A stretch of 64,000 nt of DNA from a phage. The first letter of the stretch is position 1, and each line of letters opens with the position of its first letter. Under the pieces are notes generated by a model, which saw nothing but the letters and a program-made list of their open reading frames with translations, did no database searches and had not been told where the DNA came from. Below, in pieces: positions 4,248-62,897 of the stretch. The position numbers and the translations under genes are program-made. The stretch lies in the sequence record PZ445448.1. One strand, 5' to 3'.

Positions 4248-4613
4248 ATGGGCAAACGCATGGATATTATTTGTCATAAAGATTTCTGGGAAGGAAGTTA
4301 CTTCACAGAATATTTTGGTAAACTGGACAATGGTCTGCTGATCCAGTTCTACACCGATGCGGAAAACAACATTCACTGGGAGTTCGAAACTGAAGATATC
4401 CATAAACTTTTCACCTTCCTCGGTATTAAGGTTGAGGCCAAGTTTGAAGAAGGTGAGTGCGACGATTGTGGATTCTATGAGGTAACAGATTTCTATCTCC
4501 CGAGTGGTGAGAACCTTTACTATGAGAGTCACTTCGGAAACACCAACATGCCTCAAAGCTGGGAAGAATTTTTCAGTATCGTAGAAGAGGAGCTGGCATA
4601 CCGTGATTATTGA
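4248..4613 (+). CDS. hypothetical protein
   Basis: ORF in plus-strand array; weak SD. Confidence 0.4.
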   Translation: MGKRMDIICHKDFWEGSYFTEYFGKLDNGLLIQFYTDAENNIHWEFETEDIHKLFTFLGIKVEAKFEEGECDDCGFYEVTDFYLPSGENLYYESHFGNTNMPQSWEEFFSIVEEELAYRDY

Positions 4614-5061
4614 TACTGTAAAGGGAGATTTAATCTCCCTTTTTAAGAGCGGTGCTGGTCACCTAATCCACGGTTGTAACTGCTTCCACACAATGGGTAA
4701 GGGCATAGCAAAACAGATTGCCCGTGAGTTTCCTCAAGCATTGTCAGCCGACAAAGAGACCAGACACGGTTGCCTAAGTAAACTGGGTGCGTTCTCCCGA
4801 TGGGAGCACTTATCTCCGAGAGGTATTGTCTACGGAATCAATCTGTATACTCAGTTCTACCCAGGGCCTAATGCTGAATATTTCTCAATCCTGAAAGGCT
4901 TTGAGCTAGTCAATGAGGTATTCGAGGGATCGACTTTACCATTCTACATCCCTAAGATCGGGTGCGGCATAGGCGGTTTGAAGTGGGAGCACGTAGAGGA
5001 CGTTATTAACCTCGCCACTTTTGATATAGATATTATCGTGGTGGAGTACAAAGAGTGTTGA
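4603..5061 (+). CDS. macro-domain protein (ADP-ribose binding/processing fold)
   Basis: motifs HGCNCFHTMGKGIA and IPKIGCGIGGL resemble macrodomain Gly-rich loops. Confidence 0.5.
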   Translation: MIIDTVKGDLISLFKSGAGHLIHGCNCFHTMGKGIAKQIAREFPQALSADKETRHGCLSKLGAFSRWEHLSPRGIVYGINLYTQFYPGPNAEYFSILKGFELVNEVFEGSTLPFYIPKIGCGIGGLKWEHVEDVINLATFDIDIIVVEYKEC

Positions 5062-6126: not shown

Positions 6127-6372
6127 ATGAACAAAGGGTGGACATTTGTAGACGGCGTTAAAAACATGCCTCTAGGAAAGTATATCGTAGCCATGGCTGA
6201 TGAGGATGGCAATGTAGATTTCGGAGCTTGCGAGGTTGTTCTTGCAGGATCTGGTAACTATGTGAGTAAAACCGGGATAATTAACGGTCAGTTCTACTTT
6301 GATCACAACCCTGTTGTAGCGTATATGGCTATGCCAGAGTTCAAGTTCCCAAAGGAGGGTGCAGATGTTTAA
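6127..6372 (+). CDS. hypothetical protein
   Basis: ATG after GCAGGAGATAAAGT. Confidence 0.5.
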   Translation: MNKGWTFVDGVKNMPLGKYIVAMADEDGNVDFGACEVVLAGSGNYVSKTGIINGQFYFDHNPVVAYMAMPEFKFPKEGADV

Positions 6373-6562
6373 GCTTAAATCTGCATGGAACATCGCTGTG
6401 GGGGACGAGATCCGTATCCCAGGTGGAAAGACCATTATGAAGATATCTCGTATTGAGTACGAAGGTGACCGTGTATTCCACATCTTCGCAGAAGATGGTC
6501 GAGAAATTTATATACAGGCAGGTTCTCACATTTATATCCGTAAGAAAGGGGACGACAAATGA
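6359..6562 (+). CDS. hypothetical small protein
   Basis: ATG after AAGGAGGGTGCAG. Confidence 0.45.
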   Translation: MQMFKLKSAWNIAVGDEIRIPGGKTIMKISRIEYEGDRVFHIFAEDGREIYIQAGSHIYIRKKGDDK

Positions 6563-6888
6563 CAGAGATCATCATTTCAACTGCAGGGTATGTGTTCCTG
6601 ACAATCATTGCACTGACTATTTTGGTGACAGTGTATGGGTTTGTTATCCTTCCTATCCTTGAGACATTTAGTTTGTGTCGGTGTTGGAGAAAAGCTTACG
6701 GTCCACAACCATGGAAGGACTGGCCCCACCTGGTGCGCTTAGCGTTCTCTTATGCTTACGATCACTCCAGTAGTGCATGCATAACCGGATACCACGCCCA
6801 CAACTGGAGCTGGGAAGGATTGAGGAAATGGAATGTTACAAAGACCATACCTCTACGCATGTACAAACCTAAAAACAAAGACAGCTGA
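6559..6888 (+). CDS. hypothetical membrane protein
   Basis: N-terminal hydrophobic stretch; ATGA overlap. Confidence 0.45.
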   Translation: MTEIIISTAGYVFLTIIALTILVTVYGFVILPILETFSLCRCWRKAYGPQPWKDWPHLVRLAFSYAYDHSSSACITGYHAHNWSWEGLRKWNVTKTIPLRMYKPKNKDS

Positions 6889-6889
6889 T

Positions 6890-7480
6890 ACTTGAAAATT
6901 CCTGGCATATCAAGTGTAAGGGGGATTTCTAAAATGGATTTCCTCCTTTTGATATTTCACCGGGCTGGATATTTTAAAATTCTTAGAAAATCAGAAAATG
7001 GATCGAAAACTAAAATGGATTTTTCAGAGTAGGCGCGACAAGCTGAATAACTCATCCTATCGTTTGCACCATATTCCAGGCCACCATTATAGATTTCCCA
7101 CACATGCTAACCTCCCTCTACTAGAACTTCCTCCACTTGCCCTTAACCTTCTATGGTAACAATCTAACCACTATCTTGAAGTTGCGGTGCAGCTTTCCAA
7201 GTACTCGATCTACTTTTCATTTCATGGCTTGGATTTTCTGAAAATTTTTCTCGATAAATTTCTCAGTACTCGATCTGTTTTTCGTTTTCTGAATCGGATT
7301 TTCTGGAAATCGTTCCGGATCTCGACCTGAAATTTTTGGGGACGAAATCGATTTTTCGTTTTCAGAAATGGATTTTTAAAATTTCTATATGGGAATATTT
7401 TATGGGATACTGTTTTATAGGAAATTGTTACGGAGGGTAATTAGCATGCTAATTAAATTTATTAAATGCGAGGAGTTCTC
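6890..7480. repeat. gene-free AT-rich region with GGATTTT(C) repeats and duplicated AGTACTCGATCT
   Basis: at least 6 copies of (A)TGGATTTT and two copies of CAGTACTCGATCT; no ORF with SD. Confidence 0.5.
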
Positions 7481-17281: not shown

Positions 17282-17554
17282 ATGTCAAGCTGGATTAATC
17301 AAGAAGTCGAATCACGTTTTAATGCTATTTGGGATCTCATCGAAAAAGAAGACGGCACATCAAGCCCCTACCTCAACAATTTGGAATTCCATTTTGTGGA
17401 AGCGATGAACGCAGAACATGATCACGAAGGTGGTGCGGACGAGTTCGCTAAAGGGTATGGCTTCAACAATGCCAACGAAATGATCGAGGCGGTTGTACTC
17501 CAGGCTGAGGAAGATTATCAATTAAAAACGCTTGAATTCTGCCGCCGTAAGTAA
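17282..17554 (+). CDS. hypothetical acidic protein
   Basis: TTGACA promoter, hairpin, AGAGAGGAAAACACT-ATG. Confidence 0.55.
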   Translation: MSSWINQEVESRFNAIWDLIEKEDGTSSPYLNNLEFHFVEAMNAEHDHEGGADEFAKGYGFNNANEMIEAVVLQAEEDYQLKTLEFCRRK

Positions 17555-17614
17555 TAAGATAATGACACGGGCCGGGAGGCCCACTAATCAGAACCACACA
17601 AAGAGGTAAACATC

Positions 17615-17878
17615 ATGAAACGTCTTGATCAGCTTAAACTAGTTCAGTACATGGCCTACAAAGTTCTTGAAGTCCAAAAAGGTAGCAAAAAAGAGGTTTG
17701 CGAGAAAGCATATAAGATCTTTACCCGTAAAAAAGATGATTGGATGTTACGCCAGACCAAAAAAGCCGATATCCTGGGATACCTGGAAGAAGAGATCCGA
17801 CTTGAAGAACAAGAAGAGATCCGCCGTAGTGAGGCAGATTATCAGGCAGCTTGGGAAAACTGGATGAGCAACAAATAA
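17615..17878 (+). CDS. hypothetical protein
   Basis: hairpin GGGCCGGGAGGCCC then AAAGAGGTAAACATC-ATG. Confidence 0.55.
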   Translation: MKRLDQLKLVQYMAYKVLEVQKGSKKEVCEKAYKIFTRKKDDWMLRQTKKADILGYLEEEIRLEEQEEIRRSEADYQAAWENWMSNK

Positions 17879-18022
17879 TACAACAAGTTACATGGTCAGG
17901 GGCAATAAAGCCCCTTGATCACATAAAAATTATGCTATCCCTGGTTGACAGGGATCGGCAGTTTTGCTATATTCTTTTTTGAAGGGAAGTTGTAAGAAAA
18001 TTAACTAAGAGGTAAAAACACC

Positions 18023-18442
18023 ATGAACATTAAATCTAATAATCCGGCATATAGCTTTGATAACGCTTTTTGTCACGGTCCGGCGGCGAAAGGATTCGAA
18101 ATCGATGGTAAACTAATTATTGTCAATGTTGACGGGGAAGAGGTTGCAGTATATCCGGTGGCAGACGTAAAAAGCCGTTTACAATGCCGCATGGATGTTA
18201 CCGCCTATCAGCTTGATCCGGTCCGCATAGTTGCCCTGGTCCTGGAAGAAGAAATTAAAGCCATGCACCATAGCAACAGATTTATTGGTGACGCGCAGGA
18301 TAATATGAAAGTATGCCGCCATAAAGTTAATGAAGTGCTTAAAGAGTACGGCTATAAAGATCTTATGATCAAACGTGAGGAAAAATTCCGCTACCGTAAC
18401 GACCTGGCAAATCGGATTTTTGAAATATACGAATCATTATAA
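18023..18442 (+). CDS. hypothetical protein
   Basis: TTGACA..TATATT promoter; AAGAGGTAAAAACACC-ATG. Confidence 0.55.
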   Translation: MNIKSNNPAYSFDNAFCHGPAAKGFEIDGKLIIVNVDGEEVAVYPVADVKSRLQCRMDVTAYQLDPVRIVALVLEEEIKAMHHSNRFIGDAQDNMKVCRHKVNEVLKEYGYKDLMIKREEKFRYRNDLANRIFEIYESL

Positions 18443-18461
18443 TTTTTTAACTGAATTATCA

Positions 18462-18486
18462 AGGGGCTTAGGCCCCTTTCTTTTTG
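18462..18486 (+). terminator. intrinsic terminator closing the plus-strand array
   Basis: AGGGGCTTAGGCCCCT followed by TTCTTTTTG. Confidence 0.65.
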
Positions 18487-18489
18487 TCT

Positions 18490-20950
18490 GCTCTTCCTCC
18501 TACCACAAACGGCCCAGCCTGGCAAGTGGAATAATTGACTAGCCATCAATCCCACACACTGTACAAATATACATGGAAAATAACTATTGCATAATTTTTC
18601 ATTGTGTGGTAGCAGGTCCATTTTTACCCGTTTTCTCTCTCAAAATTGCACGTAATGCCGCTATTGCACAAAATTTAACCTGATGCACATCTTCAATATC
18701 TTGTCAACAACTAAAAATCTTTATAAGTCATACACTTACACACTCACAAAAGCGTGTTCTACGTGAAAAATCGAGTATAACTATAGCCGCCAGATCTCAG
18801 AATTTACGTACGCTCACCATTCTATAGTCTGCTAAGTATTTATTCCAACCATGGAATAACGGAATAGTCAATACCTGCATAAAATAATTATTCGTGTAAA
18901 CTGCATAACATAAATCAGCTCAGGTGTCAACATTTTTCGTAAACAGTCCGAAATTGTCACGGTGAGTTATCATAAACAGAGAAATATTTAGTCGTCTAAT
19001 GTTTACTGTACATTACTATACTGACTGGAATCATTAGATGACTAAGAGAAAGATAAGAAATAATTAACAATACAATTATTTTATCTGTAACAATAAGGCA
19101 ACTATGCAAACGAATGGCATGGCGCGACGGAGTCGCGACATAATATAAAAGCAGTAACCATCACCCCCGTGATAGTTTGTCTGCAAACTATTAATCAGAT
19201 CATAGTTGCCTTGTATTTAGTTAATCATGACATAACAAGCAAGGCAACTATAGATCTTCTAATAGTTGCCCTGCTTTTATATTATGTCATAGAAACACCC
19301 GAAGGGGTGACCAAAGGTCACCTGGCATGGCCAGTGAAAGATTATTAACTTGTTAATTGTTAACTTGCTAATTGTTTTCATGCAAACGAATGTCATGGCT
19401 TATCCTATCTGTGTAAACAGTCAAGGTGTAAACTATCCAGGCGTAAACAATCTATACGTGAACAGTGAAACATGAAATAATAACAGTCGTTATTGTGTCG
19501 AAAGTGTATAAGGTGTCATAGTATGTCAGACAAGTTTTTCTCCTCTTTGTCAAGTGCTGCATGAAAAATTTACAAGCTTGTATGGTAGCATTTTTGCTGC
19601 CCTGTTTACATTCAGTTGTGTATGTATAACCCTTGTTGTGTGGGCGTTTAGACGTCTAGACGGTTGGAAGTCCGCAGGTTAATATCTAATCTATTGGCTG
19701 CTAACTATATCCCACACAAATAGTAAGAAATATAATTGTTATGTGCGTAAACAGTAACTCATGTTATCAATCCCTGTATGTATCGCCAGTGGTGCGCATA
19801 ATGGGTATTATGTTAAATTGCCCGTAATGATAACTATTCTCACAATGATAGGTATTCTCATTCACTCCCACAAGATAGGTTGCAAATGTTGTGCCACTGT
19901 GTGAACGGCCTCACCTATTAATTTGCCTCACTGCCTCGATATTTGAGAATTGTTATAAGAATGAGAAGTATTCCCATTTCGTCCGCCTGGCAGCACTCCA
20001 GTCGCTACCGCTCATGACAGGGCAGAACTAGACCCTCTTCAGATATTTCTGGCTGACTCTTCAGGCCTGTGTGGGAAAAGCCAACCTCTCCGGCGGCGGG
20101 GAGGGGTTTGTCAGGAAAATTGCAGGTCAATTAAAAAATTTACGTGGTATATGAAGCGCTCTTCAGGTAAGGCATGTATTATGGGATGAAACCCTCTTCA
20201 GGCAATGATATTTGTGGGTGTGATATTTGCTGGAAAGCCAGATATGACGGGACTCCCGGCGGGGCAGGGGTAGTACAGACAGGGGAAATATGGAGGATGT
20301 AGTTGGGGGAGTTGATCAAACAGGTAGAGTATGGAATATGTTACAAGTATGTTAAATATGGAGGGTGGATATCTGTAGGATTTATGTGTAAAATCAAAGA
20401 CTTAAGTGGTGTTGTGGTATTTTCTATAAATAATTCAAGTTTAATAGGTAATATTTGTCTCTATCCGCTTTGTGTGGTAAACAAATTCAGATGGTGTTGG
20501 TTTACAAGTGTATACATAATATACAAATTAAAGATACAAGAAACCCCCCTCCCCCTTCGGCTACCATTCACCTTTTCCTCTGACTGGTACTTAAACACTT
20601 ATTCAGACTCTTCAGGTTATCACCCATATATCATATGGCAGTGACTGGTGTCCTCCGGCCCCTCTTTCGTCACCCGTCCGCTTCGCCATGCTAATGCCAT
20701 AGCCAATGGTTCGGTTGTTCACCCTGTTCACTCAGGTGTATCTCCATACCCCTTCAAACCGAAGAGAACAGAAAACCCGAATTACTCGGTAAAAGAAAAG
20801 AGAAGAACTTAATTTTATCAGGATAGGCAAGAATGTCAAGGCATGACTGCTCACTAAACAAGCAAACAGTCATGTGTGGGAGGTAAGTGATTGTGGTGGT
20901 AGGAAATTTAGTTGAAAGATGTGTTATAGGTGCTCCCAGCACTTTAGCCG
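18490..20950. repeat. 2.4-kb gene-free repeat-dense region (GTAAACAG iterons, AAGGCAACTAT sites, CTCTTCAGG repeats)
   Basis: no ORF with SD on either strand; multiple short repeat families. Confidence 0.6.
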
Positions 20951-20966
20951 GGTAGCTAATTGTGTG

Positions 20967-21182
20967 TCAGTCCAGTGGTTCATCACCTACTTCACTGAAA
21001 TCAATGTTCATGGTCTCCTCCCAACCATCAATCTCAGCACCAGAGTAGAGATCTTTAGGACTTACTCCCAAAGCATCAGCAACAGAGTCCATATTTAACA
21101 CCTCTGGCAGGTATGATTTATCGAATTCAAGGTAAATCAGGCCACGAGTATTGTCAGCTCCACCAAATATTTCTATCTTCAT
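20967..21182 (-). CDS. hypothetical small acidic protein
   Basis: AGAGGAGATTTC-ATG on minus strand. Confidence 0.45.
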   Translation of the reverse strand: MKIEIFGGADNTRGLIYLEFDKSYLPEVLNMDSVADALGVSPKDLYSGAEIDGWEETMNIDFSEVGDEPLD

Positions 21183-21303
21183 GAAATCTCCTCTGGAAAT
21201 GAGAGTGTGAACAGGGTTTTATACGTTCCGATGCACAGGAATTATGCACGTTTTCCTCTTCAGGCCATGCTTTAGCATGAGGAACCTGTGTGGGCTCGGT
21301 GCT

Positions 21304-21516
21304 TCATAGTCTACCACCCCTGAACTCTTCGTGCTCAGGCATAATAGAGAACCAGATATCTACGATGTCTTCCCACGTTAGGTCATCAGCCTCAGGATCT
21401 ACCTGGAGCAAAGATGGAGAATCTTCAGAATCGAAGTTTTCCTCTTGCACTGGCTCAGTCAAGGGACATATAGTCACTCCTTTGGATGTCTCTTCAGATG
21501 CATGCGTGTTTATCAT
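21304..21516 (-). CDS. hypothetical acidic protein (internal start of a longer ORF)
   Basis: acidic C-terminal half; upstream half has atypical composition. Confidence 0.3.
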   Translation of the reverse strand: MINTHASEETSKGVTICPLTEPVQEENFDSEDSPSLLQVDPEADDLTWEDIVDIWFSIMPEHEEFRGGRL

Positions 21517-21876
21517 GTTCCACCCGTGAGTATTCCGGCAACAGCCGCTATGGACGTAATGATCATCAGAATAACCACCAAAACCTCTGACAATGTTTTC
21601 ATTGTGTATCCCATATTCTCCAAACGATGTGTGGATACTATCACTGGAGCGGCAATGTGTCAACAGAAACGCCGCGAGGGTTTGGTTAAAATCCGAGCGT
21701 ATGGTGATTTGGGTCAAAACGGACGTGCGTTCTCGCTACGCTCGAAATATAGAGTTGTTTGTAGGAAGCTCTTAAACGCTCTGTAACGAGATTATCTGTC
21801 CAAGGTATGCAATCGTGCACCAGATAAAGAAAAGGACGCCACAGAGCGTCCTAGGTGTCTTAAATTTGATATTTTG

Positions 21877-22176
21877 TTATACCCATGAGGGTTTATCAAG
21901 GTTGGAGTAGCTGAAAGGTGTCAAAAGGTGATTGTCAAAATCTCTCAAACTATCCAGATCTTTCTCCTCGTCCTGACACCATCTGTGCCTACATTTATTG
22001 TTGTAGTGCATAGAATGCATAGCGTTCTGCAACTTAACAGGTACAAGTGATTCAGGAGTAGATAGTATTGTTGGGTATGCCAGAACCACCTCAAACAGTG
22101 GAAACACATCGAAACTAAAGTCTACCTCTGCAGAGGTTGATGGCATGTAAGAGTATTTAGCCGCCTTTGTAGACAT
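21877..22176 (-). CDS. hypothetical protein (start at MSTKAAKY)
   Basis: GAGGTGG SD then ATG. Confidence 0.4.
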   Translation of the reverse strand: MSTKAAKYSYMPSTSAEVDFSFDVFPLFEVVLAYPTILSTPESLVPVKLQNAMHSMHYNNKCRHRWCQDEEKDLDSLRDFDNHLLTPFSYSNLDKPSWV

Positions 22177-22184
22177 AATCCACC

Positions 22185-22511
22185 TCACACAGGTTTGATA
22201 ATACCTTTACCGAATAATTCTTCGTATCTAATCTTATCCGGATCCCACTCCTGGATAATTTCGAAGACAATATCCAACCCAGGGATAATCACTTCTCCAG
22301 TGTCAAGTTTGGCAAGAACAAAACCAGAAGGCTGAATGGTTTCCCAGTTGCGCCGATTGGAATAGAAGACCTCGAAAATATCGCCGACCTTTATCTGTTG
22401 ATCAAGATGTTCAAGATTCTCTTTCATATAGACGCAGCGGATTTTTCGTGCAGGCCATAGACCACCTGCATCACGTTCATTTAGCTCTTTTACAGTAATC
22501 GGTATACCCAT
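22185..22511 (-). CDS. hypothetical protein
   Basis: ORF in minus-strand array. Confidence 0.45.
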   Translation of the reverse strand: MGIPITVKELNERDAGGLWPARKIRCVYMKENLEHLDQQIKVGDIFEVFYSNRRNWETIQPSGFVLAKLDTGEVIIPGLDIVFEIIQEWDPDKIRYEELFGKGIIKPV

Positions 22512-62084: not shown

Positions 62085-62159
62085 GCCCTGTTAGCTTAGT
62101 GGATAAAGCAGCGGCCTTCTAAGCCGTTGACACTGGTTCGAGTCCAGTACGGGGTGCCA
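62085..62159 (+). tRNA. tRNA-Arg (anticodon TCT)
   Basis: cloverleaf folded by hand: acceptor GCCCTGT/ACGGGGT, anticodon loop CTTCTAA, T-loop TTCGAGT, encoded CCA. Confidence 0.75.
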
Positions 62160-62163
62160 AATT

Positions 62164-62250
62164 GGGGAGTTATCCCGTAGAGGTAGCGGTGTAGACTGTA
62201 AATCTATTGTCATTGCGACTCGGGTGGTTCGACTCCACCACTCCCCACCA
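62164..62250 (+). tRNA. tRNA-Tyr (anticodon GTA), long variable arm
   Basis: acceptor GGGGAGT/ACTCCCC, anticodon loop CTGTAAA, T-loop TTCGACT, CCA. Confidence 0.7.
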
Positions 62251-62364
62251 AATTTATATTTTTAGATGCATAAATAATACAGATAATGGCATTGATATTT
62301 ATCGTCGTTTATACTAGTCACTAACTGCTCGAAAATCAGTGTCATTATCAGTATAATTTATAAA

Positions 62365-62455
62365 GGAGGGTAGGGAGCAATGGTGCTCAAGCGGTCTTGA
62401 AAACCGTCCCGTTGAGGATGACTCGATGATGGTTCGATTCCATTACTCTCCGCCA
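62365..62455 (+). tRNA. tRNA-Ser (anticodon TGA), long variable arm
   Basis: acceptor GGAGGGT/ACTCTCC, anticodon loop CTTGAAA, T-loop TTCGATT, CCA. Confidence 0.65.
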
Positions 62456-62553
62456 CATTGTTGACCTTGTAATTAAGCGAAAGCCGGAAGCAGAACCGGA
62501 TTATCAAATGTTACAGTCGTCATCGCCGACTAGCAACATGGTCAACATACTGA

Positions 62554-62650
62554 GCTAGGTAAGCCCTTTGGCAAGGGCGAGGATTTTTAATCCTGAAAAT
62601 AGACGAGGTAGTCGTTGAATACATAGGTGGTTCGATTCCATCACCTAGCA
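62554..62650 (+). ncRNA. 97-nt tRNA-like element with irregular anticodon region
   Basis: perfect 7-bp acceptor GCTAGGT/ACCTAGC, D-arm, T-loop TTCGATT, but about 10-24 nt too long and no clean anticodon stem. Confidence 0.35.
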
Positions 62651-62657
62651 CCTTTTT

Positions 62658-62733
62658 GCTGATGTAGCACAATCGGTAGTGCAATTGATTTGTAATCAAT
62701 AGGTTGTAGGTTCAAGTCCTGCCATCAGCACCA
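62658..62733 (+). tRNA. tRNA-Thr (anticodon TGT)
   Basis: acceptor GCTGATG/CATCAGC, anticodon stem ATTGA/TCAAT loop TTTGTAA, CCA. Confidence 0.8.
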
Positions 62734-62734
62734 A

Positions 62735-62809
62735 GGCCCTGTAGCTGGAAGGTTCAAGCAAGCGACTCATAATCGCCAGACGGTGGTTCAATTCCACCCA
62801 GGGCCACCA
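62735..62809 (+). tRNA. tRNA-Met or Ile2 (anticodon CAT), elongator type
   Basis: acceptor GGCCCTG/CAGGGCC with G1-C72, anticodon loop CTCATAA, CCA. Confidence 0.7.
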
Positions 62810-62820
62810 AATAGTAAATA

Positions 62821-62897
62821 CTCCGCGTAGCTCAGCTTGGTAGAGCGCCTGATTTGGGATCAGGAGGTCGAGTGTTCGAATCACTCCGTGGAGACCA
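62821..62897 (+). tRNA. tRNA-Pro (anticodon TGG)
   Basis: D-arm GCTCAGCTTGGTAGAGC, anticodon stem CCTGA/TCAGG loop TTTGGGA, T-loop TTCGAAT, CCA. Confidence 0.8.

Follow-up and report, generated by a model that had tools for sequence, protein, structure and literature searches.

We analysed a 64,000-nucleotide stretch of phage DNA (sequence record PZ445448.1; hereafter the window), which belongs to a Vequintavirus, an rV5-like Escherichia coli phage, and in which a cluster of short direct repeats, the 9-mer CTCTTCAGG, lies between two convergent blocks of genes. Phages of this kind are widely isolated and are used in E. coli O157 biocontrol and in therapy cocktails. The plus-strand genes stop at 18442 and the minus-strand genes at 20967, and the ~2.5 kb between them, which includes the stretch 20030–20620 singled out by an earlier sequence-only reading, is gene-free in careful annotations. 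In the rV5 paper it is drawn as a grey "non-coding" box that "contained no ORFs" (open reading frames), and terminators were not found between the flanking genes 163 and 164 (PMC3606486). The 2.5-kb box has stood blank on the map since 2013, and our analysis puts the physical ends of the genome inside it. About 120 Vequintavirus Escherichia phage genomes match the region around the repeats at 92–96% identity over 2.6 kb. A search of E. coli genomes returned no homolog of 19988–20960, which indicates that the region is not host-derived and, in that collection, not mimicked by satellites. The 139-aa gene to the left of the box is also found in Septuagintavirus-like phages (A7_1, A73, W70, LTH01 and UPEC06; hereafter the second genus) and in Phapecoctavirus. 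Here, we show that the repeat copies are clustered, lie in one orientation, are conserved and stand beside a documented genome terminus.

A repeat array beside the terminal repeat

A 459-bp terminal repeat has been published for one phage, Gotham (PMC7471380). The terminus is documented by three database records from different laboratories. OX460980 starts, and PP261279 ends, exactly at 19529, and MT884009.2 was opened exactly at 19987|19988 (…CGTCCGCC|TGGCAGC…). Taken together, the Gotham mapping and these record breaks identify 19529–19987 as the direct terminal repeat (DTR), here in the single-copy form of the concatemer. The CTCTTCAGG cluster starts 48–70 bp beyond its right boundary (…CCGCC|TGGCAGCA…), and the first conserved copy stands at 70 bp. 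The features of the terminus and the array are given below, with conservation counted in an alignment of 15 diverse Vequintavirus genomes over 18400–21300.

19529–19987, no strand: DTR, single copy in the window; equals the 459-bp repeat_region at both ends of Gotham (MT682716)
19985–19995, plus strand: right DTR boundary box GCC|TGGCAGCA, with the presumed terminase cut at 19987|19988; the 11-mer recurs in the second genus
19996–20034, no strand: hypervariable spacer outside the DTR, with indels of up to ~68 bp; identity to the window 0.53 at 20000–20019 and 0.80 in the next bin
20035–20043, plus strand: degenerate copy CTCTTCAGA (8/9), not conserved; most relatives read CTGTTCAGA, CCCTTCAGA or CTATTCAGA
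20050–20112, plus strand: unit A, TGGCTGA-CTCTTCAGGCC-TGTGTGGG-AAAGCCA-CCTCTCCGGCGGCGGGGAGGGGT, from pairwise alignment with unit B; conserved block 20040–20100
20057–20065, plus strand: copy 1, CTCTTCAGG(CC), which opens unit A; identical in 14/15 genomes
20159–20167, plus strand: copy 2, inside the 20-mer ATGAAGCGCTCTTCAGGTAA; identical in 14/15 genomes
20187–20278, plus strand: unit B, CTCTTCAGGC-GATATTTGTGGG-GATATTTGCTGG-AAAGCCA-CTCCCGGCGGGGCAGGGGT, from pairwise alignment with unit A
20194–20202, plus strand: copy 3, CTCTTCAGG(CAA), which opens unit B; identical in 15/15 genomes
20608–20616, plus strand: copy 4, CTCTTCAGGTTATCACC, invariant in the 15 genomes; compare CTCTTCAGGCCATCACC of A7_1
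21256–21264, plus strand: copy 5, CTCTTCAGGCC…CCTGTGTGGG, like copy 1 with an 18-nt insertion, in a 121-bp spacer between two minus-strand genes

Exact CTCTTCAGG occurs eight times in the 64 kb, at 20057, 20159, 20194, 20608, 21256, 37492, 44383 and 45250, and all eight copies are on the plus strand, against an expectation of 0.41 ± 0.60 from shuffles. The five non-coding copies all lie within 20057–21264 (1.2 kb). The chance that four of eight random sites fall inside 552 bp is ~1.5e-4, and that five fall inside 1.2 kb is ~1.5e-5. Hence, the same-strand repeats reported by the sequence-only reading are real and are clustered beyond chance; four of its five copies are exact and were placed correctly to within ~4 nt, whereas the one at 20035 matches at only 8 of 9 positions and the one at 21256 had been missed. 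Measured from the right DTR boundary, copies 1–5 stand at +70, +172, +207, +621 and +1269 bp, which puts copies 1–3 within 215 bp of the cut. The spacings between successive copies are 102, 35, 414 and 648 bp, and the degenerate copy at 20035 precedes copy 1 by 22 bp. Copy 5 is antisense within the minus-strand operon.

The remaining three copies (37492, 44383 and 45250) lie in minus-strand genes, in each case as in-frame CCT GAA GAG (Pro-Glu-Glu). The sampled genes hold eight such tripeptides, for which synonymous-codon shuffling leads one to expect 1.0 such 9-mer (P=0.07), and the coding copies need no special explanation because Pro-Glu-Glu codon usage accounts for them; a genome-wide role for them was rejected on the same grounds. 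Late genes had been named as a place where further copies might be sought, and JohannBauhin, a close relative, has none on either strand of its 50-kb late structural module, from terminase to tail fibres. The 9-mer is therefore not randomly distributed over the genome, since its non-coding copies are confined to 1.2 kb and its three coding copies are explained. In IMG/VR, scans for the patterns CTCTTCAGG-N15-45-CTCTTCAGG and CCTGGCAGC-N62-92-CTCTTCAGG returned unrelated, mostly coding matches, none of which, for the second pattern, came from a locus that resembles the window, and a literature search for the motif yielded nothing usable.

Copies 1 and 3 open longer units that are truly paralogous: aligned over the 63 nt of unit A, units A and B agree in 52 columns and score 30, compared with −4 ± 6.4 for shuffles. 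Common to both, and in the same order, are CTCTTCAGGC, GTGGG, AAAGCCA and CTCC(C)GGCGG..GGG(G/C)AGGGGT, with insertions in unit B. Copies 2 and 3 also lie in similar surroundings, their 20-mers being 85% identical. The relatedness of the longer units had been noticed in the sequence-only reading and stands, but their description as ~120-bp tandem units does not: the starts are offset by 137 bp and Tandem Repeats Finder finds no array at 20030–20620, so that these are two dispersed related modules and not a regular tandem repeat. The unit-B sequence GGCGGGGCAGGGG stands in the 3' part of unit A in some phages, which suggests gene conversion.

Across the 15 genomes the DTR is conserved at 0.9–1.0, and its flanks (19300–19520 and 19988–20030) are hypervariable with indels. 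Beyond the right flank, two conserved islands stand out, 20040–20100 with copy 1 and unit A, and 20125–20290 with copies 2 and 3 and unit B; the segment between them at 20100–20120 has 35% identity, and the segments adjoining the copies fall to 35–55% identity to the window base. Copies 1–4 are kept in 14–15 of the 15 genomes and units A and B in all of them. Copy 5 heads a conserved block at 21256–21300 (9-mer kept in 14/15), next to a variable segment at 21220–21255. This alternation fits functional islands between hypervariable spacers, as opposed to general conservation. That the copies are kept while the adjoining spacers diverge points to purifying selection, which contradicts the suggestion that they are a decaying tandem duplication. 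In the spacer at 19996–20034 some inserts repeat the cut-site-like GCAGCACTCC, and the spacer of bov11CS3 is unrelated. Just beyond the right DTR boundary some phages have 30–70-bp insertions, which seem to be degenerate duplicates of the cut site (…CTGACAGGG(A/C)AGCACTCCTGT…); these could be alternative or fossil cut sites.

The second genus provides an independent comparison. A7_1 has the same convergent architecture, yet BLAST detects no similarity to the box of the window. The two sequences share 13 11-mers, compared with 1.5 expected, and four shared words are colinear:

Window 19805, A7_1 6091: GTATTATGTTAAAT, DTR interior
Window 19985, A7_1 6302: GCCTGGCAGCA, boundary
Window 20057, A7_1 6404: CTCTTCAGGCC
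Window 20207, A7_1 6941: GATATTTGTGGG

The third of these is the 11-mer of copy 1, which in A7_1 is likewise colinear with the boundary box. In UPEC06 the first and last 462 bp are identical, starting GACAA… (GACAAG… in the DTR of the window) and ending …GTGCC|TGGCAGCA, which indicates that both the length of the terminal repeat and its two boundary sequences are conserved between the genera. The boundary 11-mer GCC|TGGCAGCA is also present in A7_1, A73 and W70. After the boundary comes a hypervariable spacer, and then CTCTTCAGGCCATCACC (CTCTTCAGGCC) ~100–120 bp outside the repeat in A7_1, UPEC06 and A73. A relaxed core, CTC-N3-AGGC, occurs five times in A7_1 within 6404–6915, always on the plus strand, against 0.65 expected; CTCTTCAGGCC is the first of these sites, and the last three (6862, 6884 and 6906) are 22 bp apart. 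Alignment of unit B against the module at 6394–6512 of A7_1 gives z=3.6. On sequence comparison, then, the second genus shows the boundary box and the motif in the same order and orientation, though it is otherwise without detectable similarity there. In the Phapecoctavirus phAPEC8, the gap downstream of the shared 139-aa gene lacks the motif and shares no more k-mers than expected. The proposal of a duplicated regulatory or cis-acting unit gains support from these comparisons, given that the units are paralogous, are kept in 15/15 genomes and have a counterpart in the second genus.

A second short repeat family, GATATTTG, has three of its five window copies in the DTR boundary region (19938, 20207 and 20222), all on the plus strand. 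To these can be added GATATTTC at 20042, and in A7_1 the family is represented by CGATATTTG (two copies, at 6939 and 6963). At W70 ~1716–2198, a 483-bp ORF, W70_248, is inserted where the proximal CTCTTCAGGCC module would stand; it may be a mobile or homing element.

The AT-rich stretch and the ultraconserved block

Between copies 3 and 4 the base composition changes abruptly, and copy 4 lies in an ultraconserved block.

20350–20540, no strand: AT-rich stretch, GC 0.29–0.33, between a plus-strand G-rich and a plus-strand C-rich stretch
20540–20920, no strand: ultraconserved, unannotated non-coding block of 381 bp, which holds copy 4, a C6TC5 tract (20544–20556) and a minus-strand sigma-70-like promoter
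20812–20839, minus strand: predicted sigma-70-like promoter, TTGACA-16-TAAAAT with extended TG and 11/12 consensus matches, which points leftwards to the repeats and the DTR

The GC skew flips sharply around the AT-rich centre, from +0.3 to +0.7 at 20050–20450 to −0.3 to −0.5 at 20500–20750, and each strand is G-rich 5' of that centre (20350–20550). Of 118 Vequintavirus records, 85 match the 381-bp block at 99% identity or more and the remaining 33 at 95% or more (most listed rows reach at least 98%), compared with 84–96% for its coding and non-coding flanks, and only ~20 columns vary in 20552–20910 among the 15 genomes. Polymorphisms are few and cluster at 20631–20633, where a CCAUAU/AUAUGG hairpin has its loop, and at 20704–20708. 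The segment 20540–20920 matches nothing in Rfam, shows no significant folding and holds no convincing ORF.

On the minus strand, from 20556 to 20530, G5AG6 (GGGGGAGGGGGG) is followed by the T-rich TTTCTTGTATCTTTAATTT, ~250 nt downstream of the sigma-70-like promoter. To the eye, this combination resembles the G5AG7 conserved sequence block 2 (CSB2) of human mitochondrial DNA. The terminal repeat of A7_1 carries G5AG5AG5 at its right edge (6274–6290). Within the ultraconserved block, 20716–20733 is a tandem 9-bp repeat, TGTTCACCC TGTTCACTC. The origin iteron of phage P4 is TGTTCACC; the core TGTTCAC of this P4-iteron-like octamer is not enriched in the window (10 found compared with 10.5 expected).

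Readings of the array

Our best explanation, which we hold tentatively, is that the CTCTTCAGG array and its extended modules are pac-like recognition sites, part of the cis-acting DNA beside the right DTR boundary. The array abuts this boundary in both genera, which favours such sites. Its layout, as far as can be read from sequence, resembles that of a repeated protein-binding site, with a short core in one orientation, some 22-bp phasing, conservation amid hypervariable spacers, and a fixed order and strand relative to the cut-site box. The central variation of the CTC-NNN-AGGC core in the second genus would be expected of a two-part protein contact. Negative results for a promoter, a known RNA family and an RNA fold also count in favour of this reading. 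From this arrangement we infer that a protein binds the array, that it is a packaging protein, and that packaging and not replication is served.

In short-DTR phages, the terminal repeat is duplicated while the concatemer is packaged (PMC10438801). A phage packaging protein, putatively a subunit of the small-terminase type, would bind the array on concatemeric DNA, and the extended modules CTCTTCAGGC…GTGGG…GGCGGGG(A/C)AGGGGT may be same-orientation sites for such a sequence-specific DNA-binding protein. The bound array would position a nuclease for the cut at …CCGCC|TGGCAGCA… (19987|19988), 70 bp from the nearest conserved copy, and binding would also determine in which direction packaging and terminal-repeat duplication proceed.

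Known packaging sites resemble this arrangement in part. The pac site of SPP1, at ~0.3 kb, is much more compact. In SPP1, three sets of direct repeats (boxA, boxB and boxC) lie around the pacC cut and are bound by the small terminase, and repeats of this type are only moderately conserved between related phages, yet functional (PMC4737164). The likeness is that in SPP1/SF6 pac several short direct-repeat sets, in non-coding or leader DNA, flank a sequence-specific terminase cut (PMC4737164). Unlike the case here, with short exact terminal repeats, SPP1 packages by the headful mechanism from pac, and there is no sequence similarity. Its site spans the terS promoter and gene start, whereas the present array covers 0.6–1.3 kb far from the terminase genes, and binding to it is putative. 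Phage lambda cos (cosQ-cosN-cosB) covers ~200 bp, has the sites R1–R3 bound by gpNu1 and an IHF-dependent bend, and yields 12-nt cohesive ends. Like the array on the present reading, it combines a cut site with a one-sided array of small-terminase sites that sets packaging polarity; it differs in having cohesive ends in place of terminal repeats, and in sequence the two are not similar. At the T7/T3 concatemer junction, the short repeat arrays SRL and SRR and pac signals flank a 160-bp terminal repeat; these elements were reportedly described by Dunn and Studier in 1983 and by Chung and Hinkle in 1990. Shared with T7 are a short exact DTR, same-orientation repeat arrays immediately internal to it and a promoter near the end. 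In T7, however, regularly spaced heptamer arrays occur on both sides, whereas here CTCTTCAGG occupies one side and the other flank has unrelated repeats. T7 also relies on an RNA polymerase of its own, whereas rV5-like phages have no such enzyme (PMC3606486).

Several observations speak against packaging sites. The array extends over 0.6–1.3 kb, with copies 4 and 5 far from the cut, whereas pac and cos sites usually cover ~150–300 bp, and the copies are irregularly spaced. No small terminase subunit is annotated in the 1–50000 module of JohannBauhin. In the second genus, LTH01 reads CTCTTTAGG and W70, with its inserted ORF, lacks the proximal copy, so that this copy is not strictly indispensable in that clade. 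All non-coding cis-elements may be crowded into the single ORF-free box, which would make adjacency to the terminus weaker evidence than it looks. Direct repeats together with an AT-rich stretch and a promoter also fit a replication origin. Finally, Vequintavirus packaging has been classed as permuted or headful from PhageTerm (PMC8407724; PMC13211470); even if the ends are of that kind, 19987|19988 would be the preferred terminase (pac) cut.

The main rival, which we consider unlikely but serious, is that the copies are iterons of a replication origin: a phage initiator or helicase loader would bind the repeats, 20350–20540 would unwind, and a G-rich transcript from the minus-strand promoter, ending in G5AG6 and a U-rich run, would activate or prime initiation. 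Iteron origins such as lambda ori, plasmid iterons and the P4 ori/crr octamers usually have units of 17–22 bp. What the box has in common with them are direct repeats in one orientation, some of them 22 bp apart (20035/20057; in A7_1 6862/6884/6906), beside an AT-rich trough (GC 0.29–0.33) that is flanked by the sharp local skew flip and faced by a near-consensus promoter within the ultraconserved block. The rV5 authors, moreover, could not locate an origin (PMC3606486), and the minus-strand G5AG6 with its T-rich run looks similar to CSB2, the human mitochondrial element for priming and termination (PMC5027508). However, the core is only 9–13 bp and irregularly spaced, no DnaA box TTATCCACA is found at up to one mismatch in 18400–21300, and no initiator-like gene is adjacent, the small flanking proteins being without Pfam domains. 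The polarity of the skew is that of converging and not diverging leading strands, large-scale skew tracks gene orientation (PMC3606486), and in mitochondria G-tracts of up to 11 guanines hardly increased termination (PMC5027508). A variant that joins both functions, in which the ORF-free box is a combined module for end processing and replication priming, with mitochondrial-type priming linked to terminus formation, seems to us improbable. Host RNA polymerase would start at the promoter (20839–20812, minus strand) and make a G-rich transcript that stalls at the CSB2-like G5AG6 and U-run (20556 to 20530); the stalled transcript might form an R-loop or a hybrid G-quadruplex primer at the AT-rich edge, and the CTCTTCAGG...GGGG(A/C)AGGGG modules on the other side would bind a phage protein that couples initiation to the cutting and duplication of the adjacent terminal repeat.

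A role in transcription or RNA has a similarly small probability, with the 9-mer either part of a phage-specific plus-strand promoter or present as CCUGAAGAG in minus-strand read-through RNA, where it would act in processing, termination or protein binding within a long 3' UTR or a non-coding RNA. If minus-strand transcription, from the operon or from the promoter at 20839, continues leftwards, all five non-coding copies would be on one RNA, and no strong minus-strand terminator is predicted between 20770 and 20000; the copy at 21256 lies in an intergenic spacer of the minus-strand operon, and the minus-strand CUGAAGA matches the hammerhead core CUGANGA. However, Rfam gives no match at E<=1 in 17500–22500 and, at E<=10 in 19900–21000, only noise from eukaryotic and archaeal families, and single-sequence folding of either strand gives z-scores from −1.9 to +1.3, whether for the units, for the cluster as a whole or for the ultraconserved block. 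The hammerhead idea was dropped: Rfam includes hammerhead ribozyme families, none of them scored, and there is no significant fold. Promoter-like elements, also suggested by the sequence-only reading, fare no better, given that none of the 18 promoter-like sites in 18000–22000 coincides with a copy, sigma-70-like hexamers at the right distance are absent, there is no plus-strand gene to the right of 18442 until ~58 kb, and the JohannBauhin late module has no copy. That the repeats are functionless, a remnant of local duplication or a by-product of recombination or repair at the terminal-repeat junction, kept because the region is young or homogenised, is already disfavoured and quite improbable. 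The paralogy of units A and B, the unit-B sequence within unit A of some phages and the duplication-type indels in the DTR-flanking spacers are what one would expect of it, but the copies are kept where directly adjoining segments fall to 35–55% identity, and a genus without BLAST-detectable similarity here has the motif again, on the matching strand and in the corresponding position relative to the boundary. We regard as very improbable that the 9-mer marks strand-specific nick or modification sites, or restriction targets or decoys. All eight exact copies lie on one strand, single-strand interruptions occur in T5 and phiKMV-like phages, and CTCTTCAGG contains the EarI/SapI core (CTCTTC) and CTTCAG, the reverse complement of the Eco57I/AcuI site CTGAAG. 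Against this, Pro-Glu-Glu codons account for three of the copies, 50 kb of JohannBauhin has none, the pattern is not strand-specific genome-wide, and we found no report of nicks in rV5-like DNA in the rV5 and Gotham papers (PMC3606486, PMC7471380).

Earlier publications cover the non-coding box and, in the case of one phage, the 459-bp repeat. We found no literature description of the position of the repeat in the box, of the boundary boxes, of the CTCTTCAGG/CTC-N3-AGGC array with its modules or of the ultraconserved block. The cut-site box GCC|TGGCAGCA and the flanking repeats are concrete, mutable candidates for cis-acting packaging or replication signals. They can be of use in correcting genome orientation and annotation, given that many records are opened arbitrarily or called "circularly permuted", in engineering these phages and packageable plasmids, and in judging transduction risk. 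General concepts are unchanged, as repeat arrays beside phage termini are a known kind of element.

Flanks, neighbouring genes and related records

The left flank of the DTR (19000–19528) has repeats of its own, unrelated to the array: tandem 15-mers at 19341–19376 and 19411–19452, a perfect 18-bp inverted repeat (19137–19154/19271–19288) and CAAGGCAACTAT palindromes at 19202–19251. Its part at 19300–19520 is hypervariable, with large indels in some phages. Chi sites are absent near the genome ends. The FtsK orienting polar sequence (KOPS)-like GGGNAGGG occurs 10 times in the 64 kb, compared with ~8 expected by our own estimate, and the G/C tracts of the region account for the three that lie in it. 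Small genes nearby are labelled 'DNA translocase/FtsK' in some records; Pfam shows no such domain, and the idea of a phage KOPS reader was dropped. The small proteins that flank the box have no Pfam domain and fall into PHROGs of unknown function.

The final gene before the box (18023–18442) encodes the 139-aa protein of unknown function, which is ~89% identical in Phapecoctavirus, a member of another subfamily. There the gene (4501–4920) lies ~1–1.2 kb from several record ends, and the non-coding DNA downstream is unrelated. In JohannBauhin the large terminase gene is split by an intron, and immediately upstream of it lie genes with a spanin annotation. About 19 records entitled 'Campylobacter phage' (MG0656xx; UNVERIFIED, host C. 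jejuni) are 88–95% identical to this E. coli Vequintavirus region, which suggests mis-assigned hosts or contaminating coliphages. Elsewhere in the window, seven tRNA genes lie at 62085–62897, and ARAGORN reports a 99-nt 'tRNA-???' at 62554–62652 with a four-base anticodon (atcc), which could be an intron-containing, a frameshift-suppressor-like or a degenerate tRNA.

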